64,000 nt of DNA from an uncultured virus (IMG/VR IMGVR_UViG_3300044612_003086) (IMGVR_UViG_3300044612_003086:62001-126000); one strand, 5' to 3'; numbered from the stretch's first letter, positions 3,288 to 55,789 are shown. The notes: a model not told the origin generated them from the sequence alone. A program made the numbers and translations.

Positions 3288-3792
3288 CGTTGTTATCCTC
3301 CAATTGGCGCAAAATATTCATTGCGTTCCAGGCGTCGTCGCGCTGTTGCAGCGATTTAAATGAATAAATATCCCTCTCAGACTTTACCATTCCTCCGCAG
3401 CAACTAGTTTGAACTTGAACAACATCAGTCTTTGTGTTTAAAAACTCCTGAATGCGGTCAGATTTTTGTTTAAGCGATTTTTGTTTTTTACCCAATTTTG
3501 AAACAACATTTAGACCGTCAAGCATTTTTTTGTCTATTGGCTTAGTTTTTAAAATAAATGTGTCGTACCATGAACCCTTGGTTGGATTTTGTGGTGAATC
3601 CCAAAGAAATCGTAAAAATCTTGACGAGCGGTTCTTTCTGACGCCGATTGCTTTTGCTGCAAAAGAGAAAAAGTACACGAATACGGCACTTCCGTCCGGA
3701 CGAACAACTGCACCATCTTTGGAATTTTTATTCGCGTCGATTATGTAATAAATACGGTCTTGGCCTACTGAACCAGCCAATACAGCTTTCAT
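3280..3792 (-). CDS. Hypothetical protein
   Basis: 170-aa ORF overlapping both neighbours; GGAG upstream. Confidence 0.75.
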   Translation of the reverse strand: MKAVLAGSVGQDRIYYIIDANKNSKDGAVVRPDGSAVFVYFFSFAAKAIGVRKNRSSRFLRFLWDSPQNPTKGSWYDTFILKTKPIDKKMLDGLNVVSKLGKKQKSLKQKSDRIQEFLNTKTDVVQVQTSCCGGMVKSERDIYSFKSLQQRDDAWNAMNILRQLEDNNDV

Positions 3793-9700: not shown

Positions 9701-11165
9701 CATTAGTGAAGAAATTGTATTCAATTCGGTCGAAAAATTTAGCGGTTCCTGGTTTTGTTTTGTACAGATGCAAAGCTGTTTCAAAATATGCTCGCTCTGT
9801 TTCGTAATATCTCTTAATGTCAGCTTCAATTAAGCGCTCTTGTTCTGGCTTGGTCAGCGCTTTCCAGTTAGCCACCTTCTGCAGGCGGGCTGTTATGTAC
9901 CTGCGAACCTCGTCTGGTCTCATTCTGGACATATCGCCCATTCCAGAAACATTCGATACGTTTAGGTCCCAACCATCTCTGCCGCCCGTTGCGACGAACA
10001 GCTCATTTAGCTTTTCTACTGCCTCGAATACGTCGGCATTTACTGCTCGTGCAGCATCGCTTCTGTCAACACCCAATTCGCTATACAGTTGCGAAACGCT
10101 TTCATCGAACTTGATAGCCGCATCCTGGGCATTTATCAGTCCGTTTCTAAAAAGTCGCTGACCTGGCTCAACGTCAACCGTACGCCAATCTGGGGAATCT
10201 AGTCTTTCTCCAGTTATCTCGTCGTAATACGGGCTTCTTGCCATTCTGACCGGAGCCCACGGAACATTTGAATCCCACTCATTGTTTTTTATAAAGTTAA
10301 GTAGTGTTCTTACTCCGTTTGTAAAACCACCAAGCTCCCCTGATTCCTGCATCTCTTTTGCCTTACGCGCAGCAAAGCGAGAGAATCTCGACGCGCTAAA
10401 ACCAAAACAGTTGGTTCCGAACATGTCCGTAAATTGGTTTGCAGCAGGGGTTCCCGGAGGGCATCTGAATTTGTTTAGCTCGTCACGGACTACGCCGAAT
10501 CGAGCAGCAGCTCGCGCAATGAGATTTCCACCAGGAACACGAGAAGAGAGAGGTCTGCCAGGGAGGCGTTTTTTTTCTAGTCCGTTTTCTTTTTCTGTTA
10601 GTTCACGTAGTTTGGCTCGTCGCTCATCGAATGACATGCCTGCAGTAATAGAGAATCCATCTATTTCTTCTGCCGATTCCTGGATTACATCATCTGTTTT
10701 TGCATTTACTTTAAATTTTGTAAGTTTTATTTGCGGTTTGCGATTAAGCTCAAAAAGCATTTCGTCGAGATTTTTGAAATTCCCAGTTGTCGGCTCAATC
10801 CACCCAATGTTTGGCATGGTGTCCATGCCATTTTTGCTTTCGTATGATGGACTAAGTACAAACCTTTTTCCTGGCTCCCACTTCGCTGCAGTTTCCCATC
10901 TGTGACCAAATTCGTCGGACTGAACGCCAGGTCTAGTGTCTCCAGTGAATTCACGTTTCTTATTGTCGGTATCTTCGTATGTTTGGCGATTTTCGCCAAG
11001 AGCTTTTACTGCGATATCGGCAATAAGTCTTTCCTGTTTGGCTGATTCAATAACTGAAGCCTTGAAAGTAAGAGCCTTTTTATCAACGTCACCAATAGTG
11101 CGCGCAGGCGCCAGCATGCGACGCGATACAACTACTCGTTCCTTGTCGGTGAAATCACCCGTCAT
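3789..11165 (-). CDS. Giant polyvalent protein: zincin HExxH domain, degenerate VIP2-like ADP-ribosyltransferase, ParB/Srx-like domain, DUF3626-like ART domain
   Basis: 2458-aa ORF; FHEFSH...EVGAE; GDEINVDNFIS...SVAEGNRG...DEQKFVAPPG; PSQQQL...ILDGHHRWAG; RPVSGY...FGDIEVVLK...GDSL...FEAQILGG. Confidence 0.75.
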   Translation of the reverse strand: MTGDFTDKERVVVSRRMLAPARTIGDVDKKALTFKASVIESAKQERLIADIAVKALGENRQTYEDTDNKKREFTGDTRPGVQSDEFGHRWETAAKWEPGKRFVLSPSYESKNGMDTMPNIGWIEPTTGNFKNLDEMLFELNRKPQIKLTKFKVNAKTDDVIQESAEEIDGFSITAGMSFDERRAKLRELTEKENGLEKKRLPGRPLSSRVPGGNLIARAAARFGVVRDELNKFRCPPGTPAANQFTDMFGTNCFGFSASRFSRFAARKAKEMQESGELGGFTNGVRTLLNFIKNNEWDSNVPWAPVRMARSPYYDEITGERLDSPDWRTVDVEPGQRLFRNGLINAQDAAIKFDESVSQLYSELGVDRSDAARAVNADVFEAVEKLNELFVATGGRDGWDLNVSNVSGMGDMSRMRPDEVRRYITARLQKVANWKALTKPEQERLIEADIKRYYETERAYFETALHLYKTKPGTAKFFDRIEYNFFTNDEAGTAVHGSMRPGAGGIRGVMHVNLERIMTNQESMLPDMRADERLAVSAVGVVSDSEAKSAVADFLINSEYAARHMAGLVDGPRSFTKHIAFHEFSHGIQSQAFIQKILRKAIDNGGKIEIPQYKQDKRTGAMTFVGNRIVTVDFDEERGGLLTNLTSGDVMDLMMDSNDGLDLKNMSDALKRSEVAAFLAGKYPTEYTEGSEIWGLEVGAELHALREQGLIFGDDVDAALEWMDDVERSRLSAERADIDAEERAILESTTFRPTSSSSADRLSDEEIDEMSGDIEKRTIEERREKLKEFKKFYSELDEEEMFQQAALVDAQRRDIRAQLDNFTNELNGLSELPEDATEESITERTEKVADLSKKIEEGQKILDYYEKMYSDSRSEWRKKFGVGAKGEASRFDRVVEKTRRDAGMVDDEEIKAFAKAKRIDDITSSAKTKSENQLIRRAADIDVLVKDRLEDDPEVQELMEERSILRSEYISRIAESGDSRATARAGREFNGKVDELLKPKPKKIKKFKSQKEAIDNAKREKARLRRKITKEQAAAIREMDDFVAPEIAQMLTPEKQTVVGRAMNARNARLNRLGLAVDPRRKDEGSLSEQVRNILIPTMEAIDSSSIDSPFEFEVVSDFPAVEVKGKKVGDEINVDNFISGRVLTSRSKPTSSPRGTDKETGRVKRKIIISVAEGNRGVFPNAEKDDEQKFVAPPGKLRIISRDKDGTIRAEIVRQKDTVDVLDALVDGISSGTDDAIWRQGNSKKIREVADKEIIRRSKLGISRPDSTERESADIDETSAEIIDSVADFGSTFGEAPSRRLSSGSTHFGPTLSREERRSSRRKQLSSDMRELRSILNGNGSKEYDDIASDMLDSNVAEALRRYSDEQIAQLIENAAFKMHSSFDRRVRVRMRDEDISSLSENGVVRSGGVRPGAPSTSRRTERLSRMAPNDRRGRLSSGRISSVEELESRAKLEDEVAAKAADIFDKVVAGGKNVDDMTTDEISKVFGKSLVRSTRKAISANHRNTYIAEDVPTALALMSLGHHVIVKDADLTLTASAQAKLEKAVQKSALTHIEQNNERWLNFKKAYEADVLSNNPGIDISSKDFVNKMKKDYVDSYQADLCGLYDAMQNLLCSGHIGIDREKMPQTNGRTKGANTIAIRMLKNGKADGKWEPASGLSTEDSERYASLKKRHPMKNKPSSNPMSEDELNWFYSNTDWNNTEVNLEGEFIQFLNETLTPEDPSTGPSVRKKTVPANEYAPSQQQLVASKVSGMADGITKKALEIADQLEQEGLDRKSDEFRRRFLEEINKQWFSSPILATMDKYILDGHHRWAGINVANLGLGDELQVPLNVNEVQTDIVEGLTLGRAFQEVYGIKEARLGAENAWQKGDIAEISDSEIAKVAEDLKTNISDMADELYERGDFIKVGAVGYTARPDYKKAVTTRQSLRSNRRIVLPDDSDEITGRAAARRTWFSSGRDMTSAANRARNDRNANARAVSALTKAGVEKSERGDMVQAIAAMSVFGNGGTSEDIAKVANQIAAAGNQDLALVAVRELQRSGAIDKNTAMRAMEKLGDYSGPRKPVSNRKKLQNSFADGFRAFMKNVSETRNNNRTRGVLSRTRRQVLTGKMSDGDTDATSSQRIGMSAINFAKDYQSSIGLSSDIPNELRPVSGYLVHNSYKKAKQNQVLQNNSGNIDMDANFEIMDEDIVGDGLTAFGDIEVVLKPNVSNRVAYGKGDSLSTGHRPVALNSMNRDDIVDAYIGGSSPGSRSRNLVSTLNLLGAGMSDDFSSVNSGRDRDGKFPTPGSLGQGVDRDVFEAQILGGFDKDEVEKINYPFSRLSENSGKEDISDVVNNRSIAERLRSAGFSQEEIEYFYSINSGSKMNTQSMQKLRNYRAAKKIQDEYKKLGFDNVGIAHPEGINLFDARSYSAAAKRSDDIETVLREKIMREIAENAKKLLEEMRKEKSPSLVTRSGAML

Positions 11166-12805: not shown

Positions 12806-12867
12806 AGAACTCCTGTTTGTGCAGGAAAATGACCGGTCTGGACATTAACCATTAAATTGTGCTCTAA

Positions 12868-12873
12868 ATTATA
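12868..12873 (-). promoter_or_regulatory. Candidate -10 element (TATAAT) upstream of the 540-aa gene
   Basis: Perfect TATAAT on the minus strand in the AT-rich 12806-12947 gap; GGAG RBS before the ATG. Confidence 0.45.
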
Positions 12874-12947
12874 ACGTATCATGTCGCAGCAGCGTGAATT
12901 AGCAACATTAACTAATTTCTGCAAATTTATTTACTACTGCAATATTC

Positions 12948-15900
12948 CTATTCTTTTGTTCCTGATTTGCCGAACATGGTTCGACCTTCTTCTTGAAGTC
13001 TCTTACGTGCGTTTTCTAATTGCTCTTTACTGAAAATGTCCTCAATTGTGTGGCTTGTGCCAAATATTTCATTGAAACGATTGACCACATCCTGAAGCTC
13101 GTTGGATGAGTATCTTGGCTCATCACCCTTAATCTTGCTGAAAGTCTTGCCGCGTGTTTTTGCTGCATTGTTTAGAAGAACGGAAAGATTGCTCGTACCA
13201 AGGATGTATTCCTTATTTCTCTTGGTGTTTCCACCAGAACCCTTCTGGGTGTTTGATATGAACTCAACCATCGCCTCGGCAACATTTGCCTTGCTTGCGC
13301 GAAGTTCACCGTCAAGCTTTTGACCATTTTCTGGCCAAACGCTTTCCGCATTCTCAATCATCCCTGTCCGAATCATCTCCTGGATTGCTGCAACTGGCAC
13401 TCCGTCACTTTCCCATGACTTCCTGTCTTTCGGATTGGTCAAACCGACATCATCCATCCCGAATGACCGCTTCATTCTTTCTCTTAGCTGAGCCATCCAT
13501 TCGTCTCTGTCAAGACCAAGATTTTCGATGAGATTATCCAACTTGAAATCTCTTCTTGATGTCTTTGCGCCAGCTGGGTTTGTTTCATTGACCGTCGGTG
13601 CTGGTGCTTCTGGAACAAAGTCTGGCATTCCCTCGTAAATAAGGTCAGCCTCGGCAGAAGCTTCGCCATCAGCGTCTTCTGGGTTTGGCGTAAATCTTCC
13701 AGTTGCCCTAAATTTTGCCACTGGGTCGACTTCTCCAAGAGTGGAGTATTCATCTGAAGAAATGATTTGATTTTCTTCCCTGTCGGCCCAGAACGGATAT
13801 GCGTCTTTCCCAAATGTTTCAATGATGAATCTGTCGCGCATATTGGCTCTACCGAGATTTTCGGCAAAACGTTGAGCTGACGACATCTTCTCCACGCCCG
13901 GCTCGTCTGAAGTTACTGGCGAGAACAATCTCCATCCACCAAATTCAGGTCTATTGCCGAGTTCTGCAACGAGGAATCTGACGGCATTGTGGGATATTCC
14001 AGAATCATCATCAGAAATCCTCTTTGCATCCTCTGGCGATAAATTTAGCAATCTTGAAAGGTCGGTGTTGGAAATTGGTTCCGACTTGGTCCACTTTACA
14101 TCAGCAATTGTGTTGTCTGGATTTCTGACAACATCAAACTCTGTTGGAATTCTGATTGATTCCTTCAGGCTCTTTACTGGAAGCATCCATGTATCTGCAT
14201 CTGGATTCGAAAGATTTTCATTCCCAGATACGCGACCGATAGTTACTTGTGGTCGACGCTTCATTGCGGCGGCAGCCTTATCCAGGCCCTCATTTATCTG
14301 TCGTCTGCGCTCTTTTACTGTTCCGGACTTACTTGACGTATCTAGCGTTATTCCGCGTTTTCTAAAACCATCCCAGAATCTTCTGGCAAACGCGAATGAC
14401 TCTCCAGTCTTTGAGCCTCTAATTGCAGCAAGATTTGTAGCATTGATATTGTCCGCATAAGTGGACCCGCTACTCATTCTTCGTGCTTTTCTGTCAGCGC
14501 GATTTGAACTGTTTACTGAACGTGGCCCACCAACTGCTGCTGTCCGTTCTGGCGCTTGGACTCCTGGCGTTTCTGGTGCTGAGGTTTCTGTAGTGGCCTG
14601 TCGCTCAACATCTCCGCCACGAAGTCTTGCTCGTCTTGCCGACCTGTTGGTCCCAGTTCCTGGAACTGCTGTTTCAGGTACGCTATTTACGCGACCGCTT
14701 GAAAGTATCTCTCTTGCGCCATCAGGGAATACTTGCTCACCATCTCCAAATGGGTTCCAAAATCCAGAAGGAGCCTGCTGCTCCTCGGTTAGGAACTTTT
14801 CAATATATTCAAAACCCTTTGGATTTTTCTTTGGGTCGATAATCCATGACGTTGCCTCAGACAACTGAATGCGCTTTTTTGCGCGAGTCATCATGACGTA
14901 AATAAGGTTTTCCATTTCACGACTTATGTCATTCCCTGGAAGTATCGAACCATCGTCTTCAAACTTTGGCTGGAAGAAATCGTCTCCGGCAACCACGTTG
15001 TCGAATTCCAAACCTTTGGCTGCGTGTGTTGTTAAGAACGATGCATCAACTTCTGGCTCGTTTGCTGAGTCAGTTATCATTCTTCCAACAAGGCTGAGGA
15101 GCAATCCAGTCTCTTCTGGATTATCTCCCTTTATTCTTACAGCGTCATATGCTGGTGCATTCGATGAGCCAGCCTTACGTGGTACGTACTGCTTTTCTAT
15201 TGTGACTTTTCCTTCCAGATTGAGGTCTTTAATCATTTTCTCAATCCGGCGTCGCATCATAGGCTTTTCGCCGTTCTTGTCACCTGTGTACTGAATTTTT
15301 CCTGCTGCGTCCCTGAACTGGTAGACATCAATTATTCCTTCACCGGAAATAATTACTCCATTCTCCCATTTCCCATCTGCACCAAGACTTTCGGTATCCA
15401 GTTTCCAGAAAACTTCTCTGCTTGGTGTCTGGCCGGTTGGGTTCGGGATGATGTTAAATCGCTTATCACGATTCATCTTGTACGCACCCTTGGCTCCACC
15501 GCCGCCTTTACCTGCTTTTTGTTTTCCGAGAGCAATTAGTTCCTCACCAGAAACCGTCGAAGAACTTCCATCTATATTCTTGAATGGGTCAACATCGAGT
15601 GGTTCTTCTATTTCTCGTATTCTTGCTCTAGTTAAGACCTCGCCAGTTTGTGGGTCCCTTCGACCTAGCAATCTGTTTAGCCAGTCAAGTGGGGAAAGTT
15701 GATTTCCTTCTGCGTCTCGAACCTGCAAAAGCTTGAGCATTGAACCCAGTTGACCATAGGATGATTTTTGACCTGCGCGTTTTCTGATTTCCTCCATTGT
15801 CCACGCATTGCCAATAATCTTTGATTCGCGTGGTCGTGTCCCAACAGGACGGAGGACAAACTGATAGTGGCGTAGGAATTCAACCATGTCTCTGTATTTT

Positions 15901-18900
15901 TCGGCAGGCAATCCAACGATTTTGTCTGGATGCGCTCCGATGAATTCCAAGGCAGCTGTAAGGGTGTTTTTGTTTGAATAAGAAATATATGCCCACGTAC
16001 CATCTGCGCTTGTTGGTATCTGACGGTAGAGGATTCCTTCCGATTCTGGAACGATGTAACCACGAGCCTTGTCCAGTAGCTCATTTCTCTCTTTTTCTGG
16101 CATATCTGCCAGTGACTGTCCGTCTGGACCAGAAATTCCGTATTTCTTTTGTATTGAATCAAGTTTCTTACGCAAATCATTTCCGGTGAGTGTTCCAAGA
16201 TTGAAGTCATGAGAAACCACATCCTGAAGTCGGCCAAACAACTTGTAGTCCGCAGAAACCTCATCAATCCCATTCTGCCTGTCGGTCATGTTTCCACGAC
16301 CAAGCATCAAGTTTCCAAGGAACGCAACTGTCTTTCCGTATCTGAATGAGTCAGTCAACGTCAAGTTGAAATCTGGATTGAGTCGAGCGAATGAGTCAGA
16401 TGAACCACGGAATCCATAAATTGATTGCCGTGGGTCACCGACCATGACTATTGCAAGATTATTATTCGCAATATTGTCTTCAATCACCTTTTGGAGAACT
16501 GGGTTTACGTCCTGAGCTTCGTCAAAGAAGAAAGTCGAAATGGGCTTATCTTCCGTTGCATATCGGCGACGCAATCCGGCGCGTGCTCCACCACCTGTGT
16601 AGACATAATCCACACCATCAACTTGGACTATTGAGCCTGGGTCAAGTTTTTTGTCCTGTGCTCTTGCATCTTTCACTTTTCTTGTGCCGTGACCAACCAT
16701 TCCAGCGTCTGTACGCAGATTTGGTTTTTGCATAGCCCAAATCTTTACTTGCTGGTCGTAGTTGGGCAGCACATTGCTCTTCGGGTCGAGCGTGTCAGAC
16801 CACATTTTGAGTGCTAGGTCAACCCACTCTTGTGGTATCTGGTCGAATGCTGTTTCGGCAGGGTCGATTGGGTCGCCAGACTCGGCAAGTTGCTTATTTC
16901 TTTCAATTTCGTGTGGACGAAGCTTGAAATGTTTTTCACTAAGCGCATCATCATCACTCTGTGAATAACGAGTAAGGGCGTTGATGAGAACAAGACCATA
17001 ATCGTCAGCAGTCAGCTCCACCCCTTCGTGGGTAAGTCCGTCTGGGTATTTCGTGCCGAAATCGTAGTGTCTCGCTACGTCGCGACCACCGCTTTCTGTT
17101 TCAAACGAAACGTATCCCAAAGTTCTGAATCCAGCTTTTTTCAATCCTGTTGTATCGACAGTTTTTCCACCATATCCCTCTGCAGACGTTTGTCTTGTTG
17201 ATTTAGGGTTTGCTGATGAGTAGTACTCGTTGCCGGCGCCAATGCCTATCTTTTTTAGTTTCTCTTTGAACTCTGGAGAAATTCCTGGCCTGTCTTCGAG
17301 CAATAGGGACCAGTATGCCAATTGGTTAATCGAAGAGCTTCCTGTGTTGTCAGGCATTCTACGTGCTGCTTCTGCAGCATTTTTCTTATTGAATGTTATG
17401 TAATAAAACTGTGACTCCGGAGATTCCTTGGCCATACGAATAACAGATTGTTCAACTGTGGTGGTTTTACCTGCTCCGGCTCCTGCGCGAACAGCAGCCA
17501 ATCCACCTTCACCAGTTTTTGTGAAGTGTGCAACTGTATCCATAACGTCTTTTTGTTCATCAGTCGGCTCAAACTTCATTCCAAACATTTCCATGAACGA
17601 ACCCTCAGTTCGCTCAATCTTGCGCTTAGGGTCCTTGGCGCCAACAATTGGTCCGCGGCCAGAAGAAAGACGCTTGTTAATTTGGTTATACGTGTTGCCT
17701 TCTTCGTCCTTGATAACGAATCCGGTTATGCCGCTTGAAAGACGATTATTCTCGTAGTCCTCAAGGATAGTTTTTACTGCAGATGGACCTTGTCCACGAA
17801 CACGCACGCGTTGACGTACTTTGTTTTCTGGTGTTGGTGTGCCGACAACTGGCTTTTTCTTTGGAATTGGGATAGTGATTCGACCAACGATTGGCGCTTC
17901 AATTGTGTAGTCTTCTTTACCCTTGCGTTCGCTGTCTGGAACACCAGCGCGCTTGCGCAGCGTTGCTGACTTATTCATAATGTAGTCAACAGCCTGCTGT
18001 CCGCCTTCAATTGCACGACGGATTGAGCTTGGGTCGTCCTGCAGTGCTTTGCGCCAGAACGCTAGGTACTGAATATGGTCTTCGCGTATTTGAGGCTCTA
18101 CACCGAGGAATCCCATCGCAAATGAAGCACCGATTTCTGCGATGAGTTCTTCAAATGCGTATTTCTTTCTCTGTTCTGGGGTGCCCTTCATTCTGCCGCT
18201 TAGGTCTCTCTTTAGTCGCGATGGATGGGCTGTCCAGTGAATAATTTCATGCAGAACTGTTCCATAGAAAGCAATTGGTTCAATAAAGTTCTCAAATGGA
18301 GGAACATTTATCGTGTCGTCGTTTGGGTCGTAGAATGCGCTGACTCCCTGTTCCTTGTATCTAGGACCAATTTCTTTGATTACATTTTCAATGTCTTCAA
18401 GTCGTTGTGCCGCATCAAGTTTTTCTGTTTCTTTGACTTCGTAGACCCATGCTGGCAGTCCGTCCATTTGGTCGGCGTTGAATACTGTTTCAATTTTGAA
18501 ACCTTTTTCACCAGTACGAATTCCGTCATCATTTTTTATGTCAAACGGAACGAGGATATTGACACCAATTTCTCCTGGTTTTGGTTTTGCTTTCTTATTC
18601 AACTCACGCCACTGCGAACGTCCAGCCCAACGATTTGTTTTGTATTTGCGCTTTGATGCGACCTGGGAAAGAATCAATTGATTCATGCCTTGATAAATAC
18701 GATTTCTTCTTGTTGGATTTCGACCGTACAACTCTGGCGAGCGCCAAGGCACTTGCCACTGGCCAGCTTTGCTTGGGTCCTTTAATATCTCATCAAGCGC
18801 AGCAATAATTGCTTCACCCATTTGCTGGTACATGTCTTTAATACGAGCTGCATCTGCTTCTTGATTTTCATCTTTTCCAGATGACAGTGTCTGGCCATCC

Positions 18901-21812
18901 CTGTATTCCCAGAGTGGTCCTAAGTAGTCTTGCTTTTCACGACGAGTGCGCTTGTTTTCTGGCTTTTTTAGGAAATTCTCAAATCCACTAGAAAGTCTTG
19001 GCGCGCTCTCGGCAGCACGCGATGCACTGCCTCTTCGAATCTCGGACATGTATCTTTGTTCTGCCTGGCGCACCTCCGTTCTTGTTACACCAAGTTTTTT
19101 GGCCATATCCTCAATGGATACGCCATTCATACGCTCTTCGTAAATATCCTGGTCTGTATAGTCTTCTGGGTTCTTTTCTGGTGGAGCGATTTTCCCTCGT
19201 TTTGGACGTGGCATTTCTTCGCCGAGGAAATCTCTAATAATTCTGTCGTATGTATCAGTTCCGCTCTCATCGAATGGAAGGTTGTCGTCGCCGTAGGGAT
19301 TATCTGGGTCGAAATCGTCATCGAGCGCAGGAAGTCTTCCGGATGAGAGTTTTCTATCTGGCTTGTTTGGGCTTGCACCGTCGAACCCATATGAGTTCAT
19401 CCAGCGAGCAAGAGTCTCTTTATCGTTTGGGTCCCATGTTCCAGTTGACGGGCGACGCTCATAGACTTCGCTGCGTAGCGCACTATCAAGTCCTTTAAGA
19501 AACTGGCTCTCGCCGTCTTCGCCAACATAATTTTTATTCTTGTCCTTTTTGTCTTTTCCGGCAAAATACTTATTTGTTGCATCGAGGTATGTGCCTAGTG
19601 TGCGAACAAAATCGTAATACCACTCTTGATACGCCTGTCCGCTCTTTGCTTTTTCGTTGAATTTTGCTGGGCGCTTCTTATCGTCGCCTTGCCATGCTCT
19701 TCTTGCTTGGTTGTACCCAAGCTCGCGCCCTCTTAAGAACTCTGCGGAACGTGTATTGTCTGTTTGGTAGCGAGGCACTTCTTCCCAGCCGAAGCCCTTA
19801 TCAACCCATTCCTGTGCAGTCTTGTCAAATGCTTCTCGTCTTGCCTGTTCATCTGGTGCGACACCAAACTTACTCTCGGTTTCTTTTCCAAGACCGTGAC
19901 GTGAAGTATTAAATCGTGAGCGTTTCTCAGCTCCAGAAGAGAAGGGTTTTGACGGTGTTGCCGGTTTTGCATCTTGCACGCCGACGAAGCGGGGTCGTGT
20001 TGTTCCTTCATCTACCCAGCCATCGTTGTCGGGGTCGAAGTCGCTCCCCGTTGGTCGTCGATTTCCTGGTGTTCCGCCGGTTGGCATGTCAATGTCGCCA
20101 CGGCGATTTCTTCTGTCTCGACGGCCACCGATTGATGGTCTGTCAATGAGTCTGCTGCCAACGTAGCTTCCTAGTCTTCGGCCAATCGCTTTTGACTCAA
20201 ACTCAGAGCTATCTAGAAATTTTTTTTTTATGTTTTCCAGAGCGTTATCGACTGCTTCAATAAAATCTAAACTAACCCCGGATTTGAGAACGATTCCATC
20301 AATATCCACTTCTGCATCAACCATGTAGTAATCGAGAATTGGGTCAATTTCTTGCTTGACACGGAACGCGTCATTTGGGTGAAGCGGAATGCAGTATTGC
20401 TCATCGAATGAGTTGTCATCTTTGCCAAATTCAGAAAGTGATTTAAATTTGCTACGCTTCTTTTTTCTCTTACCTACCGCTCCGCGAAGCATGGCCATGA
20501 CAAACTCGCCAGGGTACTTAACTTCTAGGTCTTCAATAGCTTCATCGAAATTTGCGTCTTCTTCAATTTCGTATTCCTTTTTAGCAATTCCATCGACATT
20601 GACAACGCCTTTTGGAATTACTGCAAAACGACATTTGCCTTCTGGTTCGATGTCCATATCAACAATCTTGCATGACCCATCATTTTGGAAGAACACGCAA
20701 TTTGCACACTTGACCCCGATTGATGCGATGGGATTTTCTGAAGCCGGTTTATATCCAGCCCACACACCATCTTTGTCTTCGTTGAACTTGCCGTGGCGTT
20801 TTACAATTTTTAGCAAAGCGTCACGCAGGTCCGCTTCCTCTTTATCGAGGTTGTTCTTATCTATTGGCTTGTTATTGCCCTCTTCGTACTGAACTGCAGG
20901 GAGCGGAACAACAACAACACCCTCCATGCCTGGCTTGACAGCTATTGGCATTGATGGCATCTGCTGTGGGCGGACCATTCTTCTTGGCTCATTTGGCGGA
21001 ACCATCATTGGTGCTGTTTGTGGTGCGGACGGTCTCTGCATCACTATTTCTTCTGGCGGGCCGAACATCATTCGACCACCCGTTCGACTCCAGCCACACT
21101 TGAATCTCTTAACTGAACCGTCAGCCACACGACGAGCAAATGTCAGATTTTCGTCGTCCATTTCCATGAGCGATATTTTTGCGCCAAGCATTCCTGAGAG
21201 TTGCTTTTCAATTTCCAACTTGTTCGGCTTTTCATCATCCATCATCATTACGGAGCTATCTTCGCCGTATGGGTCATCTGTCTTCACGGAAATTGTGCCA
21301 GTCAGTTGATTGGCTCCATGAAGAACTGGAGACACTTCATAAAGCTCCAACTCGTAGATTACGTTTGCCTGAGACTTTTGGTCATACTGTGCGCGCAGGG
21401 TTTTATATCCAATCGACCATTCTTGTTCTTCTCCAAAGAAAGCAACCATCGTGAAAGCTTCGCGGCCCTTTTCTGACTGAAGATTAAATTGAACTTTTGC
21501 AAATAATCCGCCGATTCCAGCAATCTTCATTTTTAGTGGTAGGCGTGGGTCAGACGGTGGCACCTCGTAAATTTCGAGTACTTTGCCGATTGGGTCATTC
21601 CAGTTATGGCCCCACACAACACGCGGCTTGCGGCGCTGAAGACTCTTCGTAAAAGCACCACTTGCGCAAATATCACCAACAGAGTCTTTATTGCCGATTC
21701 CAGCTACAAAGCACTCAACAATTCCTTGCATCTCATCGAGATTGACGGAGCCGGCTTTCTGTGAAGCGGAGCCAAGGGATGTCGACTTGTATTCAAAGTG
21801 GTCAGTGGTCAT
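12948..21812 (-). CDS. HK97-family prohead protease fused to a polyvalent protein (HiPIP-like Cys domain, sigma70-r4-like HTH, ArdC-N ssDNA-binding + MPTase metallopeptidase, UvrD/SF1 helicase)
   Basis: 2954-aa ORF; DSVGD...GAF..WGHNW.DPIG...WSIGY...LYEVSPV..GAN (protease); W..PW...Y.GMN...VFNADQ (ArdC); AFY...LHEIIHWT...YAFEELIAE (MPTase); AGAGAGKTT, DEAQD, VGDPRQSIYGFRG, HAAKGLEFD, YVMMTRAK (helicase). Confidence 0.9.
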   Translation of the reverse strand: MTTDHFEYKSTSLGSASQKAGSVNLDEMQGIVECFVAGIGNKDSVGDICASGAFTKSLQRRKPRVVWGHNWNDPIGKVLEIYEVPPSDPRLPLKMKIAGIGGLFAKVQFNLQSEKGREAFTMVAFFGEEQEWSIGYKTLRAQYDQKSQANVIYELELYEVSPVLHGANQLTGTISVKTDDPYGEDSSVMMMDDEKPNKLEIEKQLSGMLGAKISLMEMDDENLTFARRVADGSVKRFKCGWSRTGGRMMFGPPEEIVMQRPSAPQTAPMMVPPNEPRRMVRPQQMPSMPIAVKPGMEGVVVVPLPAVQYEEGNNKPIDKNNLDKEEADLRDALLKIVKRHGKFNEDKDGVWAGYKPASENPIASIGVKCANCVFFQNDGSCKIVDMDIEPEGKCRFAVIPKGVVNVDGIAKKEYEIEEDANFDEAIEDLEVKYPGEFVMAMLRGAVGKRKKKRSKFKSLSEFGKDDNSFDEQYCIPLHPNDAFRVKQEIDPILDYYMVDAEVDIDGIVLKSGVSLDFIEAVDNALENIKKKFLDSSEFESKAIGRRLGSYVGSRLIDRPSIGGRRDRRNRRGDIDMPTGGTPGNRRPTGSDFDPDNDGWVDEGTTRPRFVGVQDAKPATPSKPFSSGAEKRSRFNTSRHGLGKETESKFGVAPDEQARREAFDKTAQEWVDKGFGWEEVPRYQTDNTRSAEFLRGRELGYNQARRAWQGDDKKRPAKFNEKAKSGQAYQEWYYDFVRTLGTYLDATNKYFAGKDKKDKNKNYVGEDGESQFLKGLDSALRSEVYERRPSTGTWDPNDKETLARWMNSYGFDGASPNKPDRKLSSGRLPALDDDFDPDNPYGDDNLPFDESGTDTYDRIIRDFLGEEMPRPKRGKIAPPEKNPEDYTDQDIYEERMNGVSIEDMAKKLGVTRTEVRQAEQRYMSEIRRGSASRAAESAPRLSSGFENFLKKPENKRTRREKQDYLGPLWEYRDGQTLSSGKDENQEADAARIKDMYQQMGEAIIAALDEILKDPSKAGQWQVPWRSPELYGRNPTRRNRIYQGMNQLILSQVASKRKYKTNRWAGRSQWRELNKKAKPKPGEIGVNILVPFDIKNDDGIRTGEKGFKIETVFNADQMDGLPAWVYEVKETEKLDAAQRLEDIENVIKEIGPRYKEQGVSAFYDPNDDTINVPPFENFIEPIAFYGTVLHEIIHWTAHPSRLKRDLSGRMKGTPEQRKKYAFEELIAEIGASFAMGFLGVEPQIREDHIQYLAFWRKALQDDPSSIRRAIEGGQQAVDYIMNKSATLRKRAGVPDSERKGKEDYTIEAPIVGRITIPIPKKKPVVGTPTPENKVRQRVRVRGQGPSAVKTILEDYENNRLSSGITGFVIKDEEGNTYNQINKRLSSGRGPIVGAKDPKRKIERTEGSFMEMFGMKFEPTDEQKDVMDTVAHFTKTGEGGLAAVRAGAGAGKTTTVEQSVIRMAKESPESQFYYITFNKKNAAEAARRMPDNTGSSSINQLAYWSLLLEDRPGISPEFKEKLKKIGIGAGNEYYSSANPKSTRQTSAEGYGGKTVDTTGLKKAGFRTLGYVSFETESGGRDVARHYDFGTKYPDGLTHEGVELTADDYGLVLINALTRYSQSDDDALSEKHFKLRPHEIERNKQLAESGDPIDPAETAFDQIPQEWVDLALKMWSDTLDPKSNVLPNYDQQVKIWAMQKPNLRTDAGMVGHGTRKVKDARAQDKKLDPGSIVQVDGVDYVYTGGGARAGLRRRYATEDKPISTFFFDEAQDVNPVLQKVIEDNIANNNLAIVMVGDPRQSIYGFRGSSDSFARLNPDFNLTLTDSFRYGKTVAFLGNLMLGRGNMTDRQNGIDEVSADYKLFGRLQDVVSHDFNLGTLTGNDLRKKLDSIQKKYGISGPDGQSLADMPEKERNELLDKARGYIVPESEGILYRQIPTSADGTWAYISYSNKNTLTAALEFIGAHPDKIVGLPAEKYRDMVEFLRHYQFVLRPVGTRPRESKIIGNAWTMEEIRKRAGQKSSYGQLGSMLKLLQVRDAEGNQLSPLDWLNRLLGRRDPQTGEVLTRARIREIEEPLDVDPFKNIDGSSSTVSGEELIALGKQKAGKGGGGAKGAYKMNRDKRFNIIPNPTGQTPSREVFWKLDTESLGADGKWENGVIISGEGIIDVYQFRDAAGKIQYTGDKNGEKPMMRRRIEKMIKDLNLEGKVTIEKQYVPRKAGSSNAPAYDAVRIKGDNPEETGLLLSLVGRMITDSANEPEVDASFLTTHAAKGLEFDNVVAGDDFFQPKFEDDGSILPGNDISREMENLIYVMMTRAKKRIQLSEATSWIIDPKKNPKGFEYIEKFLTEEQQAPSGFWNPFGDGEQVFPDGAREILSSGRVNSVPETAVPGTGTNRSARRARLRGGDVERQATTETSAPETPGVQAPERTAAVGGPRSVNSSNRADRKARRMSSGSTYADNINATNLAAIRGSKTGESFAFARRFWDGFRKRGITLDTSSKSGTVKERRRQINEGLDKAAAAMKRRPQVTIGRVSGNENLSNPDADTWMLPVKSLKESIRIPTEFDVVRNPDNTIADVKWTKSEPISNTDLSRLLNLSPEDAKRISDDDSGISHNAVRFLVAELGNRPEFGGWRLFSPVTSDEPGVEKMSSAQRFAENLGRANMRDRFIIETFGKDAYPFWADREENQIISSDEYSTLGEVDPVAKFRATGRFTPNPEDADGEASAEADLIYEGMPDFVPEAPAPTVNETNPAGAKTSRRDFKLDNLIENLGLDRDEWMAQLRERMKRSFGMDDVGLTNPKDRKSWESDGVPVAAIQEMIRTGMIENAESVWPENGQKLDGELRASKANVAEAMVEFISNTQKGSGGNTKRNKEYILGTSNLSVLLNNAAKTRGKTFSKIKGDEPRYSSNELQDVVNRFNEIFGTSHTIEDIFSKEQLENARKRLQEEGRTMFGKSGTKE

Positions 21813-21918
21813 TTAATTCGCTTTCACTAAGACTCAATAGATAATAAACGACCAGATAAATCTGCAGTGCAAGTATTGAGAATTGCTTTTCTTTTACAGA
21901 AACTATTTAGTGAAATAG

Positions 21919-23985
21919 TTAGAACTGAGCGAAGTTCCAGGCTCGGCGTGTCTCTTCTTCAGCAATTTCGACATGTTCTTTTGCAAGAAGATTTGCATAC
22001 ATTTCAATTAGCTCTTGTCTGAAGGATGAAAATCTTCGCTCTTCGTCAGAATAAACAAACGATTTAAGCATTATTTCATTGATATTAAAGGCTGTCTGCT
22101 CATTTATTTTTTTGATATTTGCAACGTGTGAATCAACAGCTCTCAAGAAATCTAGAGGCGGTATAGCTCTTGGCGACAAACCCTTTACATGCATTCTTTC
22201 GCGTTTTGATTCATGCGAGTCATTGATAATCGCGGAAACAACTGGCTTTAGGTCATCTTCAAATTGCTTATTCCATGAGTCAATCGAGAGTATTGAATCG
22301 ATGTCAAGCGTTCCAGCCATGAGCCCTTTTCTTGCCTTGCTTCCACCAGACTTTTCCAGTACAACTCGTTGCTGTCTTTCCAGAATTCTCTCAATTCCTC
22401 GTGAAAGTATTTCCGACCAACGCTCAATTGAAGTTTCTGTTCTGTCTTCGACAGCTGGCTCAGCTGATTTGTACTGCATCTCGCCGCTTTCTGCGGTGAG
22501 CGCTCCAGGCGGAGTTGGTGCAGCTCCAGTTTGCAATGCGGCTGCTTCTGGCGGGAGTGTACTTTGAGCAAGCTCGCCTGTTTGTGCAACCTCGGCCATT
22601 GCGCCCTGCATCGTGTTCGGGTCAAGGGGGATGTTTTCCATCGGTGGGGCCTGACCTGGCATTGGCGGCATTCCAGGAATTGGTGGCATACCGGGAGCTC
22701 CAGGCATACCTGGGGCTGCACCAGGGACCATTGCAGCGTTCTCGTCCATCTTCTTCTTTGTATTCGCAATCGGAATTAAGTTTGGATTAGCGAGGAGTGA
22801 GTCAGCAAGGTCGGACTCAACTTCTTTTCTTGAGGAACCAATTCGGTATTCGTTTCCGCTTATCAATCCAGCCTGAAACTCTGTAAGCAAATATCTATCG
22901 CGCTCTTGCTTGTACAACTGAAGAATTGGAACTTCGCTCGTATCGAAGTCGACATAGTTTTTATCGTCCAACTCATCAAGTGCTCGCGCAATCGGTTCTA
23001 GGTGCGGCAACATTGTTTCCATCCAGAAGACACGTATTTCTTCCGCAGCATTGCTGAATGTTCTTCCAGCTGCGTTTCCTATTACTGATTCCGGCACACC
23101 GAATGCAGCAAGAATTTCTTCTTTCGTAACTTGGCGCATCTGGATATACGCGGCATCGCGCGGGCTCGCTGATGTGTCAACAAAATCAACGCCATCGTCT
23201 GCTGCGATTACTGTTGTATGTCCAGTCTTGGATAGGTTGCCACGGAACCTGCTCTTTAATTCTTCTTTATCGTCTTCATCTATTTCTCCACGGACTACAA
23301 GCAAGCCGCCAGGACGGCCGTCATTAAGGAGATAGTTTCTGTTGTAGAGCTTCGCAAGATTTTCAATTTCAATAGCTACACCAGCAGCCTCGAGCGGAGT
23401 AAGTGACAGATATGGGTCAAGTGGGTGTGGACGGCGAATCCAGCAAACATCTTCTGGCTTAAGTATTACCTTTTCTCCGTAGGGCATGGCAACTTCATAG
23501 CCGGAAACAAATGTTTTCGGATGAGGGATTGGCGCCGTTGCCTGTGGTGGTAGAAGATTAAGGGCGATTATTCCGCCGTCTCTTCCGCGTATTTTCTCAA
23601 TAAATGCTCCGCGCGTACCAAGAAGAAGCTGTGCAGAAAGCCTATATCTAAAGATAAAACTATTTTCCCCAACGTTGGCTCTTGTGTTTAGTAGCTCGAG
23701 CAACGTGGAGCGATTTGCTTCTTTACCAACTATTATCTCGCCCTTGTTGGAATTATCTTTTCGAAGAATCACTGGCAGTCGTGCCTGATTACCGGCAATT
23801 GCATCAATACACCTGTTTACCCAGGTGATTTTGGACATGCCCTCGCGATATGCGCGTTCAATGTCCCATGAATCTCGATATGGTTTATGTACAAGACCTG
23901 GGTTTGCCGAAATTGGTGCACCAAAGGCAATCTGCTTTGAGTCAGACGACTTGAGTGATTTATCTTTTGGAGAGTTCCAGCCCAT
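21919..23985 (-). CDS. Phage portal protein (HK97-like) with Pro/Met-rich linker and C-terminal extension
   Basis: 688-aa ORF; WVNRCIDAIA..A.LP, N.GRPGGLL, EEILAAFGVPESVIG, TFSNA, N.YR motifs; directly upstream of the protease. Confidence 0.9.
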   Translation of the reverse strand: MGWNSPKDKSLKSSDSKQIAFGAPISANPGLVHKPYRDSWDIERAYREGMSKITWVNRCIDAIAGNQARLPVILRKDNSNKGEIIVGKEANRSTLLELLNTRANVGENSFIFRYRLSAQLLLGTRGAFIEKIRGRDGGIIALNLLPPQATAPIPHPKTFVSGYEVAMPYGEKVILKPEDVCWIRRPHPLDPYLSLTPLEAAGVAIEIENLAKLYNRNYLLNDGRPGGLLVVRGEIDEDDKEELKSRFRGNLSKTGHTTVIAADDGVDFVDTSASPRDAAYIQMRQVTKEEILAAFGVPESVIGNAAGRTFSNAAEEIRVFWMETMLPHLEPIARALDELDDKNYVDFDTSEVPILQLYKQERDRYLLTEFQAGLISGNEYRIGSSRKEVESDLADSLLANPNLIPIANTKKKMDENAAMVPGAAPGMPGAPGMPPIPGMPPMPGQAPPMENIPLDPNTMQGAMAEVAQTGELAQSTLPPEAAALQTGAAPTPPGALTAESGEMQYKSAEPAVEDRTETSIERWSEILSRGIERILERQQRVVLEKSGGSKARKGLMAGTLDIDSILSIDSWNKQFEDDLKPVVSAIINDSHESKRERMHVKGLSPRAIPPLDFLRAVDSHVANIKKINEQTAFNINEIMLKSFVYSDEERRFSSFRQELIEMYANLLAKEHVEIAEEETRRAWNFAQF

Positions 23986-32042: not shown

Positions 32043-32051
32043 TAGTTAATA

Positions 32052-38453: not shown

Positions 38454-38467
38454 CGGAGGAATAAACA

Positions 38468-38971: not shown

Positions 38972-39019
38972 ATTTGCTAGTTGCGCCACGAGGCGCACTG
39001 GTGTGATAGTTTCTCATAC

Positions 39020-39571: not shown

Positions 39572-39741
39572 TTGAAGATTCCGCAATAAAGTCAGCAGCT
39601 CGACTCGGTGAGCTGTTCCACACAAATCCGCTAGACCTATTGGCTGTAGAGGATGTTGACTGGTTGATGCTTTTGGCCTGTGCTAAAGTTATATCTAACG
39701 ACCGCGAAGAGCAAGAGCGTAAGTCGAAGACTCAGAGGTAG
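39544..39741 (+). CDS. -1-frame extension of the tail assembly chaperone (gpGT-like), absent from the ORF track
   Basis: Open -1 frame ...ELVEDSAIKSAARLGELFHTNPLDLLAVEDVDWLMLLACAKVISNDREEQERKSKTQR* with no start codon near its 5' end. Confidence 0.7.
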   Translation, partial: PYEGVFSELVEDSAIKSAARLGELFHTNPLDLLAVEDVDWLMLLACAKVISNDREEQERKSKTQR

Positions 39742-55780: not shown

Positions 55781-55789
55781 TGATACGCC

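Follow-up and report, generated by a model that had tools for sequence, protein, structure and literature searches.

A protease-led giant protein with putative junction peptides, a shared leader and a conserved A-run in an uncultured freshwater phage: a candidate capsid-loaded cargo polyprotein

Gene content and domain architecture of the locus

The window analysed here is a stretch of 64,000 nucleotides (positions 62001-126000) from the 133.9-kb record of an uncultured virus (IMG/VR IMGVR_UViG_3300044612_003086), a freshwater myovirus and probably an actinophage. It contains one intact, ATG-started giant ORF (Table 1), located in the head module immediately after the portal gene, with the large terminase gene divergent from it. 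The gene for the major capsid protein is on the same strand, at a distance of eight called ORFs downstream and just outside the window. A different ORF, orf540, was rejected as the capsid protein, given that BLASTP against the capsid proteins of the phages DalanDe and Cantare revealed no real similarity. The head module includes a second giant ORF, of 2458 aa, which had no family match in Pfam or PHROGs.

Near the N-terminus of the giant ORF, PF04586 (Peptidase_S78) scored 38 bits against a cut-off of 21, and 42.9 bits, also above the cut-off, in the genome-wide profile search, while residues 20-222 matched the PHROGs head maturation protease (E 1e-25). Motif reading placed G-H at residues 68-69 and W-S-I-G at 132-135 of this domain, and the corresponding His69 and Ser133, which we take to be the catalytic residues of the S78 family, were invariant in 35 aligned relatives. 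The HK97-type protease that a sequence-only reading had placed at the N-terminus was thus confirmed by Pfam, PHROGs and motifs. Profile searches of the 133.9-kb record found no other S78 match and no ClpP match, and the Peptidase_S77 profile was silent in this genome and in the control genomes alike. As far as profiles can recognise one, the giant ORF is the only head protease of the record.

Farther along the chain, ArdcN (48.5 bits, E 1.2e-12) and MPTase-PolyVal (115 bits, E 2.2e-33) both exceeded the curated Pfam cut-offs, with the zincin HExxH motif present as HEIIH at residue 1188, after the ArdC-N domain. Residues 991-1285 matched the PHROGs anti-restriction protein (E 4e-57), and positions 7-308 of the 324 in the PHROG 7245 profile were covered. 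The module thus combines ArdC-N with an HExxH zincin metallopeptidase of the anti-restriction type, for which DNA protection is predicted. It is followed by a UvrD-like SF1 helicase with UvrD-helicase/AAA_19 at residues 1438-1805 (PF00580, E 2e-16), UvrD_C (PF13361) at residues 2259-2319 (29.7 bits, cut-off 25.6), a PHROGs DNA helicase match (E 9e-48) and the motifs GAGAGKT (Walker A) at 1444, DEAQD at 1764 and GDPRQSIY at 1792. The HMM scan therefore upheld, above the Pfam cut-offs, the ArdC-N, MPTase and UvrD-like motif sets of the earlier reading. Its other two assignments fared less well: for the 'HiPIP-like' segment, residues 225-624 yielded no Pfam family at E <= 1 and offered only a four-Cys motif (invariant C369, C372, C381 and C394, i.e., C-x2-C-x8-C-x12-C, from alignment and motif reading), and the HTH was represented by sub-threshold matches near residues 888-926 (E 0.011-0.06), although relatives are annotated with Sigma70_r4.

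Structure prediction added little to these assignments. The AlphaFold2 model of residues 1-640 had a mean pLDDT of 49.8 and no Foldseek match in the PDB at E <= 0.001, and PDB sequence and profile searches with the N-terminal part gave nothing significant. The C-terminal module was modelled with a pLDDT of 83.3 and had no family or fold match (best Foldseek E 0.35; best VIA-align Z 4.6 over 66 residues; no usable match in the ESM Atlas), an absence that does not establish a new fold for this model.

Table 1. Positions of the giant ORF, its parts and neighbouring genes in the window
Feature	Position	Strand	Residues	Evidence or remark
Whole ORF, protease-led candidate cargo polyprotein	12948..21812	-	1-2954	2954 aa, 330.6 kDa
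Peptidase_S78 (HK97-type prohead protease) domain	21291..21722	-	31-174	Pfam, PHROGs
Conserved extension	20220..21140	-	225-531	Four-Cys motif; in 119/119 giant relatives
A10 run in coding strand (T10 on + strand), candidate slippage site	20220..20229	-	codons 528-531	I-K-K-K
Leader module, propeptide-like	19959..20204	-	537-618	Matches residues 22-101 of the 2205-aa protein
Junction peptide 1	19932..19943	-	624-627	F-S-S-G
Junction peptide 2	19338..19349	-	822-825	L-S-S-G
Junction peptide 3	18984..18995	-	940-943	L-S-S-G
Junction peptide 4	18876..18887	-	976-979	L-S-S-G, just before ArdC module
ArdC-like module	18012..18839	-	992-1108, 1140-1267	ArdcN, MPTase-PolyVal; Pfam, PHROGs
Junction peptide 5	17730..17741	-	1358-1361	L-S-S-G, after ArdC module
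Junction peptide 6	17658..17669	-	1382-1385	L-S-S-G, before helicase
UvrD-like SF1 helicase	14856..17561	-	about 1418-2319	Pfam, PHROGs, motifs
Junction peptide 7	14694..14705	-	2370-2373	L-S-S-G, after helicase
Junction peptide 8	14466..14477	-	2446-2449	M-S-S-G
C-terminal module	12951..14474	-	2447-2954	In 82/119 giants
Portal protein gene, directly upstream	21919..23985	-		Pfam, PHROGs
Second giant ORF of head module	3789..11165	-		2458 aa; four junction peptides

Invariant front part and exchangeable cargo

Residues 1-520 of the giant ORF matched 294 database proteins of 1624-5170 aa; among the 120 of these matches that were listed, PF04586 was found in 118 and ArdcN in 95. In a set of 119 giants, the protease and residues 225-531 were always present, whereas the cargo varied, with the ArdC module in 94, the helicase in 85, the C-terminal module in 82 (ending a median of 18.5 residues before the C-terminus of the giants that carry it) and the leader in 42. 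As judged from these alignments, the architecture is real and conserved, with an invariant front part and exchangeable cargo modules. Eleven loci of the viral collection matched residues 1-620 at 98-100% identity, and all seven of them that reach the gene end carried the full 2954-codon ORF. In 17 DNA runs, at least 94% of the words sampled from the stretch were present.

Close cultured relatives were sought by megablast of 13 kb, with no match, and tblastn of the whole protein gave matches in 155 records, none covering 80% or more of it. The nearest cultured phages, Gordonia phage DalanDe and Brevibacterium phage Cantare, share 40-42% identity in the protease and 45% in the portal with this phage, together with a myovirus head and tail gene order. 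Their protease genes lack both ArdC and helicase: Cantare gp13 (417 aa) comprises only the protease and an acidic tail, whereas DalanDe gp27 (1633 aa) is also oversized. Its S78 domain, preceded by an N-terminal part without annotation, spans residues 1219-1296, and neither an enriched junction motif nor a homopolymer run is present.

Junction peptides as putative cleavage sites

A peptide of the form [RK]-L-S-S-G-[RK] occurs eight times in the giant ORF, L-S-S-G proper being observed six times against 0.07 expected. These peptides flank modules, and they recur in two other giant proteins of the same genome, including the 2458-aa protein (residues 1230, 1302, 1437 and 1954); the three giant proteins hold 19 of the 25 sites of the genome in 18% of its residues (P = 6e-10). 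Across 130 distinct giants, 1324 SSG tripeptides were counted, 78% of them preceded by L. Their placement relative to the modules was analysed in 92 giants, where the nearest upstream site lies a median of 2 residues before the ArdC module and the ArdC core itself has one site in 27,111 residues, against about 107 expected (overall density, 1 per 253). The protease domain has no junction site, and the portal and other head proteins of this genome lack the motif.

The capsid protein carries a related sequence. L-[ST]-S was found at about residues 94-97 in 42 of 55 distinct N-termini, the position at which the scaffolding (delta) domain is expected to be removed, and the cargo junction peptide resembles this predicted cleavage border, the border L-S-S-R having R where the cargo junctions have G. 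In clades with the capsid borders G-L-G-S, S-L-G-S and G-L-D-R, the enriched junctions of the giants were GLRS (8 copies), GLAS (9) and GMAS (9), so that the [LM]-x-S core is kept at the capsid border of each clade while the neighbouring residues do not match one for one.

These patterns bear on a reading in which the cargo is packaged but L-S-S-G is not a site of the S78 protease, being cut instead by the MPTase or a host enzyme, or serving as an uncut linker or docking motif in a giant protein delivered whole, as the N4 virion RNA polymerase is. MPTase autoprocessing of polyvalent proteins has been proposed, and N4 vRNAP and ArdC travel uncut, according to the available part of the source (PMC5512222); the one-position offset at the capsid border (R, not G) also speaks for it. 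We nevertheless regard it as improbable. The relatives P0075, P0084 and P0085, for which no MPTase annotation is listed, still carry 10-13 junction sites, and the clade-wise shift of the motif, with the [LM]-x-S core but not the flanking residues shared with the capsid border, is against it as well. Moreover, that sites are missing from the protease domain and all but missing from the ArdC core speaks for a cleavage code more than for a linker.

A leader shared with an unrelated giant protein

The 82-aa leader is 70-72% identical between the giant ORF and the 2205-aa protein (E 5e-26), beyond which the two proteins show no similarity. In both, the first junction site comes after the leader, and the 2205-aa protein combines leader and junction peptides without any protease. 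The leader is thus a shared, propeptide-like element on otherwise unrelated cargo, followed by a putative protease site. A search among proteins of 203-2000 aa, a range that excludes the giants of more than 2000 aa, returned only three carriers, at 100%, 90% and 75% identity to the query, the last of them with an RNase_T domain.

The gene of the 2205-aa protein adjoins the primase and WhiB genes outside the head module, and cutting at junctions therefore need not occur in capsids. RNA-virus polyprotein proteases, for instance, act in the infected cell. By analogy, the long form could stay unpackaged and be cut in cis or in trans in the infected cell, only a short form going to heads, while the released ArdC, helicase and other modules would act on phage DNA that is being replicated or has just been made. 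The replication genes around the leader-bearing 2205-aa protein agree with such a role, as do the helicase, the RNase_T exonuclease and the ParB-like pieces, which are typical replication-stage activities. However, HK97-type proteases act inside proheads, the giant gene lies on the late strand with the portal gene on one side and the capsid gene on the other, a late-made anti-restriction module would be of little use in the producing cell, and the junction motif is like the predicted border of the capsid protein. In addition, packaged proteins of T4 and SPN3US are recognisable by N-terminal propeptides that the head protease cuts off (PMC7411985, available part). Processing in the cytoplasm is therefore considered unlikely, and processing in the head is preferred in what follows.

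A conserved A-run with closed flanking frames

Apart from the A10 run at the end of the conserved extension, the giant ORF has no run of eight or more A, and at this run the other two frames close after 1 and 2 codons. Of 31 lineages, represented by 82 distinct sequences, 30 have a run of A9-A11 at this site, and in all 72 run-bearing sequences both other frames end within 5 codons, a proximity seen at only 0.5-11% of codon boundaries of the same ORFs. The stops in both frames are kept although the flanking bases vary, the nine-A core forms the one long invariant base stretch among 26 aligned lineages, and the run is all A even in lineages in which only 33% of Lys codons are AAA. The A7-A8 runs elsewhere in the three giants, by comparison, have no nearby stops in both other frames. 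The run, more strongly conserved than the protein sequence would require, is accordingly regarded as a candidate site of slippage or frameshifting. RNAalifold predicted 0 pairs after the run in 26 lineages, and a frameshift-stimulating structure is thus not indicated. Six database protein clusters end just past K-K-K. Contigs from RNA libraries lie on the ORF, none of them spanning 20220-20229.

One lineage (L086-L088, three contigs) differs in having an A9 run, after which frame 0 ends 4 codons on and the -1 frame stays open for >2549 and >3004 codons. No ATG, GTG or TTG was found in this -1 frame before the leader. Two of its strains differ by 531 synonymous and 371 non-synonymous codons among 2486 aligned ones. 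On this reading of the frames, cargo can be made in L086-L088 only if the frame changes at the run. In the lineage of the window, where the long form is the in-frame product, a short form would rest wholly on slippage.

The run might also be unprogrammed, either a contingency locus that switches the cargo at the DNA level or a tolerated homopolymer with sequencing-error variants. Homopolymers are hypermutable in DNA, and a conserved run is compatible with replication slippage (PMC1088944, available part); furthermore, one A separates the contig L057 from its close relatives. We judge this explanation decidedly unlikely, since the A9/-1 state recurs in three contigs, two of which differ at 36% of cargo codons with a synonymous excess, indicating a state that is old and stable and neither an error nor a recent switch. 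Separate translation of the -1 cargo ORF would lack a start codon, and the double stops in 72 of 72 sequences with differing flanks, together with the all-A run where AAA is the minority Lys codon, stand against it too.

That an assembly chimera or a pseudogene joins separate protease and cargo genes can be practically dismissed, because the same architecture is found in the 294 database proteins from several sources and in the near-identical viral loci, seven with the full ORF, and because the independent lake metagenome run X4 covers 12800-22100 without indels or joints, one X4 contig crossing both the A10 run and the protease/cargo border. Separately, it was observed that gene callers split or truncate the protease-cargo gene in several database entries.

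Proposed mechanism of cargo loading

Taking these lines together, we lean, with modest confidence, towards a protease-led, capsid-loaded cargo polyprotein that would exist in slippage-made short and long forms and be cut at its junctions; we infer packaging, cutting, slippage, and the delivery and function of the cargo from sequence. The invariant front part, i.e., the protease and residues 225-531, would enter the procapsid like other head proteases. At the A10 run, slippage of the RNA polymerase (the likeliest case) or perhaps of the ribosome would shift a share of the product to a frame that closes 1-2 codons later, giving a 59-kDa cargo-free short form (protease plus residues 225-531) beside the 331-kDa long form, and the short-to-long ratio could set the number of cargo copies per head, in the manner of Gag/Gag-Pol. 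The long form would bring into the procapsid the leader, an HTH-like piece, ArdC-N/MPTase, the UvrD-like helicase and a 56-kDa C-terminal module. Inside the head, the protease would cut at [RK]-L-S-S-G-[RK] and release, besides small pieces, separate proteins of about 44, 110 and 56 kDa; at the next infection these proteins might then exit together with the DNA and be active ahead of phage gene expression. Loading and cutting would probably proceed likewise for the 2205-aa protein, which shares both leader and junctions, and for the 2458-aa neighbour, which shares the junctions.

The sequence-only reading had proposed that fusion to the maturation protease guarantees encapsidation of the cargo. 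The architecture it described is borne out, the gene lies in the head module and encodes the only recognisable head protease of the record, and the notion that anti-defence cargo reaches the capsid through this fusion accords with the junction peptides and the propeptide-like leader. The guarantee itself is too simple, because the conserved A10 run predicts many protease copies without cargo and because a second cargo protein has the same leader without a protease.

A wider generalisation is offered tentatively and with rather more doubt than belief, namely that tailed phages of lake Actinobacteria may use a retrovirus-like loading system comprising a Gag-like sole protease, a ratio set by slippage at A9-A11, and a portable leader with a clade-specific [LM]-x-S code, by which any enzyme cassette could be packed into the head and released there. 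The cargo form would be unshifted in most lineages and shifted in at least one, and the loadable cassettes would include ArdC, helicases, pentapeptide-repeat proteins, sigma-like HTH pieces and an exonuclease.

Comparison with known systems

In retroviruses, the structural, assembly-competent front part Gag is made in excess, recoding yields a minority of the enzyme-bearing long form Gag-Pol, and the protease cuts in the particle. The phage system would differ in belonging to another virus realm, in having the protease at the front rather than within Pol, and in using the unshifted frame for the long form in most lineages.

The closest described class is that of the polyvalent proteins (Iyer, Burroughs, Anand, de Souza and Aravind 2017; PMC5512222), which, in the available part of that paper, have two to 15 effector-type domains around an MPTase/ArdC-N hub, lie beside portal-terminase packaging genes, are predicted to be packaged and injected, and in a minority include an assemblin-like peptidase. 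The giant ORF has S78, ArdcN, MPTase-PolyVal and UvrD in one chain in a packaging-gene context, and thus shares with them the giant multi-effector chain, the hub, the helicase and the portal-terminase neighbourhood. It differs in that the head protease is N-terminal, invariant and the sole one of the phage; moreover, the same part of that paper describes no repeated junction peptide, shared leader or cargo-free slip site.

In T4, the internal proteins and Alt have a capsid-targeting sequence, and the ejection proteins of SPN3US have propeptides of 111-130 aa that the head protease removes (PMC7411985, available part). Entry by an N-terminal leader, removal at a short motif shared with the capsid protein and ejection with the DNA would be common to these systems and the present one. 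However, the T4 and SPN3US proteases are enzymes of the T4 gp21 type that cleave after a motif with Glu in it, whereas an HK97-type protease is found here, and their cargo proteins, as far as these sources go, come from separate genes with one site each, whereas an eight-site chain of modules is covalently attached to the protease here. P1 DarB (250 kDa, about 40 copies per virion) has an N-terminal packaging signal of 30 residues (PMC9024508, available part) and is likewise a giant anti-restriction protein with helicase-type domains, head-carried there and putatively so here; in that account it is free-standing and loaded via helper Dar proteins, being neither protease-fused nor a polyprotein.

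For the run, the nearest parallel is dnaX (tau/gamma) of Thermus thermophilus, in which transcriptional slippage at an A9 run with stops nearby gives about 50% short product (PMC1088944, available part). The in-frame long product, the conserved run of at least 9 A, the near stops that would give a shorter product and the existence of relatives that arrive at the same outcome through a -1 frameshift are shared. Nonetheless, dnaX is a cellular replication gene, whereas the run described here would set the ratio of cargo-free to cargo-bearing protease.

A literature search found no description of a protease-led ArdC-cargo architecture, and the main text of two freshwater actinophage papers mentions neither protease nor ArdC nor polyvalent proteins (PMC10914622, PMC6802176).

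Implications for freshwater actinophages

Packaged anti-defence proteins precede phage gene expression and so decide whether an infection starts, and the loading route and copy number of packaged proteins are known for few model phages (T4, P1, N4 and SPN3US). If the proposed mechanism is true, loading by targeting peptides or by helper proteins would be joined by a third route, a covalent link to the maturation protease, in which recoding determines the copy number and a repeated cleavage code brings about release. The A-run is also relevant to annotation, in view of the split or truncated gene calls in databases. The junction code and the leader are short and well defined, and they could be used to load foreign proteins into HK97-type capsids. 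Programmable cargo delivery, if true, would extend across uncultured phages represented by several hundred metagenomic contigs and proteins, and since these phages are frequent in lake metagenomes, as indicated by the 17 DNA runs, the mechanism would bear on the arms race between freshwater Actinobacteria and their phages.

Architecture and authenticity of the protease-cargo gene

The 2954-aa protease-cargo ORF opens with an HK97-type head protease, as a sequence-only reading had proposed. Pfam, above curated cut-offs, placed Peptidase_S78 with its G-H and W-S-I-G motifs in front of ArdcN, MPTase-PolyVal (HEIIH) and UvrD-type helicase domains, and PHROGs concurred (head maturation protease, E 1e-25; anti-restriction protein, E 4e-57; DNA helicase, E 9e-48). 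Two further calls of that reading did not hold up: the HTH match fell below threshold, and residues 225-624 gave no Pfam match at E <= 1, so the 'HiPIP-like' label has only a C-x2-C-x8-C-x12-C motif behind it, which is invariant. Foldseek and VIA-align comparison of the predicted model found no recognisable fold for the C-terminal module, and the predicted structure of the N-terminal part was poor in quality.

An assembly artefact was ruled out by relatives, full-length loci and independent contigs. Searching with residues 1-520 returned 294 proteins of 1624-5170 aa (hereafter giants), and among the 120 matches listed, 118 carried an S78 annotation and 95 ArdcN. In the viral collection, 11 loci were 98-100% identical over residues 1-620, and all seven that reach the gene end had the full 2954-codon ORF. 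In addition, 17 DNA runs contained at least 94% of sampled words of the stretch, and contigs of one independent run spanned 12800-22100 with zero indels and zero joints, one of these contigs crossing the protease/cargo border; a chimera was thus not borne out.

When the parts were scored by BLAST in 119 giants, the protease and the extension (residues 225-531) were present in all, the ArdC module in 94, the helicase in 85, the C-terminal 508-aa module in 82 and the leader (residues 537-618) in 42. The C-terminal module, where found, was terminal (median 18.5 residues from the protein end), and precomputed Pfam lists of relatives revealed alternative cargo, namely DEAD/ResIII helicases, pentapeptide repeats, sigma-70 region 4 and other HTH pieces. 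The universal front and varying cargo therefore indicate an invariant front part bearing exchangeable cassettes.

Features of the protease-cargo ORF and its genomic surroundings (window coordinates unless stated; fragments are predicted for cutting behind the second S of each junction)
Feature	Position	Details
Protease-cargo ORF	12948-21812 (-)	ATG start, 2954 codons, no interruption
Peptidase_S78	residues 31-174	G-H 68-69; W-S-I-G 132-135
ArdcN	residues 992-1108	
MPTase-PolyVal	residues 1140-1267	HEIIH 1188
UvrD-type helicase domains	about residues 1418-1805 and 2257-2319	GAGAGKT 1444; DEAQD 1764
A-run	20220-20229	nt 1584-1593, codons 528-531
Junction peptides	residues 624, 822, 940, 976, 1358, 1382, 2370, 2446	
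Fragment	1-626	69.6 kDa; protease, extension, leader
Fragment	627-824	22.9 kDa; without family match
Fragment	825-942	13.4 kDa; includes weak HTH
Fragment	943-978	4.4 kDa
Fragment	979-1360	43.6 kDa; ArdC
Fragment	1361-1384	2.7 kDa
Fragment	1385-2372	109.8 kDa; helicase
Fragment	2373-2448	8.0 kDa
Fragment	2449-2954	56.4 kDa; C-terminal module of no assigned family
540-aa ORF	11183-12805 (-)	between both giant ORFs
2458-aa ORF	3789-11165 (-)	junction peptides at residues 1230, 1302, 1437, 1954
2205-aa ORF	own record (G000) 37854-44471 (-) = L004:854-7471	outside the window
Erf-like, exonuclease, RuvC-like genes	26143-27625 (+) and 30322-30858 (+)	adjoin terminase gene
ParB-like and PAPS-reductase-like genes	31194-33741 (+)	ParB-like on either side
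2OG-Fe(II) oxygenase PHROG matches	53804-59825	five (-) within 55790-59825, one (+) at 53804-54928

Junction peptides and the capsid border

The cargo is punctuated by a repeated junction peptide, [RK]-L-S-S-G-[RK]. All eight S-S-G tripeptides of the ORF follow L, M or F, L-S-S-G occurs six times against 0.07 expected, and sites flank the ArdC module (976, 1358) and the helicase (1382, 2370). Across 130 distinct giants, 1324 S-S-G were counted, preceded by L in 78% and with R, K, G or S preferred on both sides; the first site always lay beyond about residue 520-700, with zero in the protease domain. The 92 giants with an ArdC module had one site in 27,111 core residues versus about 107 predicted from a density of 1 per 253 residues, and the distance from the module back to the closest upstream site had a median of 2 residues. 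In the phage's own genome, 19 of 25 sites fell in three giant proteins making up 18% of residues (binomial P = 6e-10): the protease-cargo ORF, the neighbouring 2458-aa ORF and the 2205-aa ORF. Relatives listed without MPTase (P0075, P0084, P0085) kept 10-13 sites, and the zincin is therefore not required for the motif's existence. S78 matched the record just once, inside the protease-cargo ORF, and no ClpP match was found in the whole 133,891 bp.

The major capsid protein begins with ~95 residues of coiled-coil character, as delta domains do, followed by a conserved Q-L-[ST]-S-R-E-I-K-S-I-G; L-[ST]-S stood at this border in 42 of 55 distinct relatives, with R where cargo junctions have G. Ten records with deviating borders were searched for an S78 protease, which was found in eight, as three giants (2330, 2105 and 2455 aa) and five frames of 568-831 aa, and not in the other two, both fragments. 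Junction and border were G-M-A-S (9 observed, 0.04 expected) and K-G-L-D-R-S in G001, G-L-A-S (9, 0.07) and K-S-L-G-S in G002, and G-L-R-S (8, 0.10) and K-G-L-G-S in G003. Their S78-led giants of 2105-2455 aa (L289, L288 and L287, respectively) were without recognisable cargo domains and carried 9-14 copies each of R-G-M-A-S-R, G-L-A-S and R-G-L-R-S-S, from near residue 545. Junctions and capsid borders share the core [LM]-x-S, their flanks varying by clade in cargo and capsid protein alike; one enzyme reading both would fit these clade-wise shifts, as a correlation and not as proof.

A conserved A-run between protease and cargo

The A10 run in the coding strand is the longest A or T homopolymer in the window, and the other two frames stop after one and two codons. 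Of the window and 193 loci (L006-L198) sampled, 177 contained the protease motif plus 1900 nt of following sequence; clustering at 90% identity grouped their 82 distinct sequences into 31 lineages. An A9-A11 run occupied the homologous place in 30 lineages and was absent from one; within two further lineages it was missing from 6/8 and 3/18 members. Among 72 run-bearing sequences, 67 had a long ORF in frame 0 past the run and all 72 had the other frames closed within five codons of it. Only 0.5-11% of the codon boundaries in these ORFs show such a double closure. The run was retained even where AAA made up only a third of Lys codons, A7-A8 runs elsewhere in the three giant proteins of this phage were without double closure, and the nine-A core was the one long invariant-base stretch across 26 aligned lineages. 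Four relatives of about 50% identity (L075, L083, L085, L081) lacked the usual run and had an A9 further along (codons 990-1318), with other frames stopping within 2-3 codons; the short/long device may have shifted position there, not been lost.

In one lineage of three contigs (L086-L088), frame 0 stops four codons after an A9 (548 aa), and the -1 frame, open for >2549 and >3004 codons, encodes the conserved leader. Of 2486 aligned cargo codons, 902 differed between two of these strains, 531 of the differences being synonymous; the out-of-frame cargo is therefore under purifying selection. Until 11 codons before the run end the -1 frame is closed, and it has no ATG, GTG or TTG upstream of the leader; judged from its reading frames, this lineage must shift frame at the A-run to produce cargo. 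Six protein clusters in the database, 534-548 aa long, terminate right after N-x-K-K-K; some of these may be errors.

No conserved RNA structure was found downstream in the 26 aligned lineages, which, together with the conserved length of at least nine A, favours RNA-polymerase slippage; less probably, the mechanism may be a -1 ribosomal shift on A-AAA-AAG. The RNA-library contigs that matched the ORF lie outside positions 20220-20229. A precedent for slippage is Thermus thermophilus dnaX, where, owing to an A9 run, about 50% of the product is short and terminates at stops close by (PMC1088944).

A leader shared with a probable free-standing cargo protein

Beginning a few residues past the A-run, the leader matches residues 22-101 of the 2205-aa protein with 70-72% identity (E 5e-26); outside this stretch the two proteins show no similarity. 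In both, the leader is followed by the first junction peptide, and the cargo part of the ORF is thus built like the free-standing 2205-aa protein. In the 2205-aa ORF the 82-aa leader is N-terminal; the protein also contains seven L-S-S-G junctions, with an RNase_T exonuclease domain between two of the sites, and a ParB C-terminal-like piece. Its gene adjoins replication genes (primase/helicase, HTH protein, WhiB), not head genes. The leader is reminiscent of the T4 capsid-targeting sequence and of the 111-130-residue propeptides of SPN3US, which in each phage are taken off by the head protease (PMC7411985).

Genomic context

The enclosing viral record (133,891 bp, estimated 89% complete) belongs to a myovirus: genes for sheath, tube and tail chaperone are present. 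The head operon (-) runs portal, protease-cargo ORF, acidic 540-aa ORF, 2458-aa ORF, five smaller ORFs and the HK97-type major capsid gene just beyond the window edge (PF05065, E 2.5e-41), the large terminase gene being divergent. An actinobacterial host is suggested by the WhiB gene and by the closest relatives in culture, which are phages of Gordonia and Brevibacterium (protease 40-45% and portal 42-45% identical). The runs containing this DNA are lake and freshwater metagenomes.

The 2458-aa ORF, with no match in Pfam or PHROG, is probably another head-loaded polyprotein. The 540-aa ORF, with a Cys-rich N-terminus, a lysine run and long acidic stretches, matched no family and did not resemble the capsid proteins of the closest phages in culture; its product could act in the head as an internal or scaffold-like protein. 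Elsewhere, the Erf-like annealing protein, exonuclease and RuvC-like resolvase form a recombination module between packaging and structural genes, the PAPS-reductase-like/ParB-like group is possibly a cassette for DNA modification or anti-defence, and a cluster of six genes matches 2OG-Fe(II) oxygenase PHROGs.

Proposed model and relation to known systems

From the observed sequence features of this family and their conservation, we infer slippage in this phage's own lineage as well as packaging, ejection, function and the identity of the cutting enzyme, as follows. The front 531 residues (59 kDa) would be the working head protease, partly produced cargo-free; the 331-kDa long form would take cargo into the procapsid, where junction cutting would split it into fragments, and the freed cargo would be ejected.

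By the definition of Iyer et al. 2017 the protein is a polyvalent protein. Assemblin-like peptidases are reported there as rare and 'always' at the C-termini (PMC5512222), whereas here S78 is N-terminal; the sections consulted describe no junction peptides, leader or slip site. In the main texts of the literature searched, no published description of a protease-led cargo architecture was found. Among cultured phages, Brevibacterium phage Cantare gp13 has a protease plus an acidic tail. Gordonia phage DalanDe gp27 (gene 27, L002, annotated 'capsid maturation protease') also differs: S78 takes up only residues 1219-1296 of its 1633 aa, neither an enriched motif nor a homopolymer is present, and 1100 residues ahead of S78 are without annotation. 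As a cultured system, DalanDe would allow protease-linked cargo to be studied.
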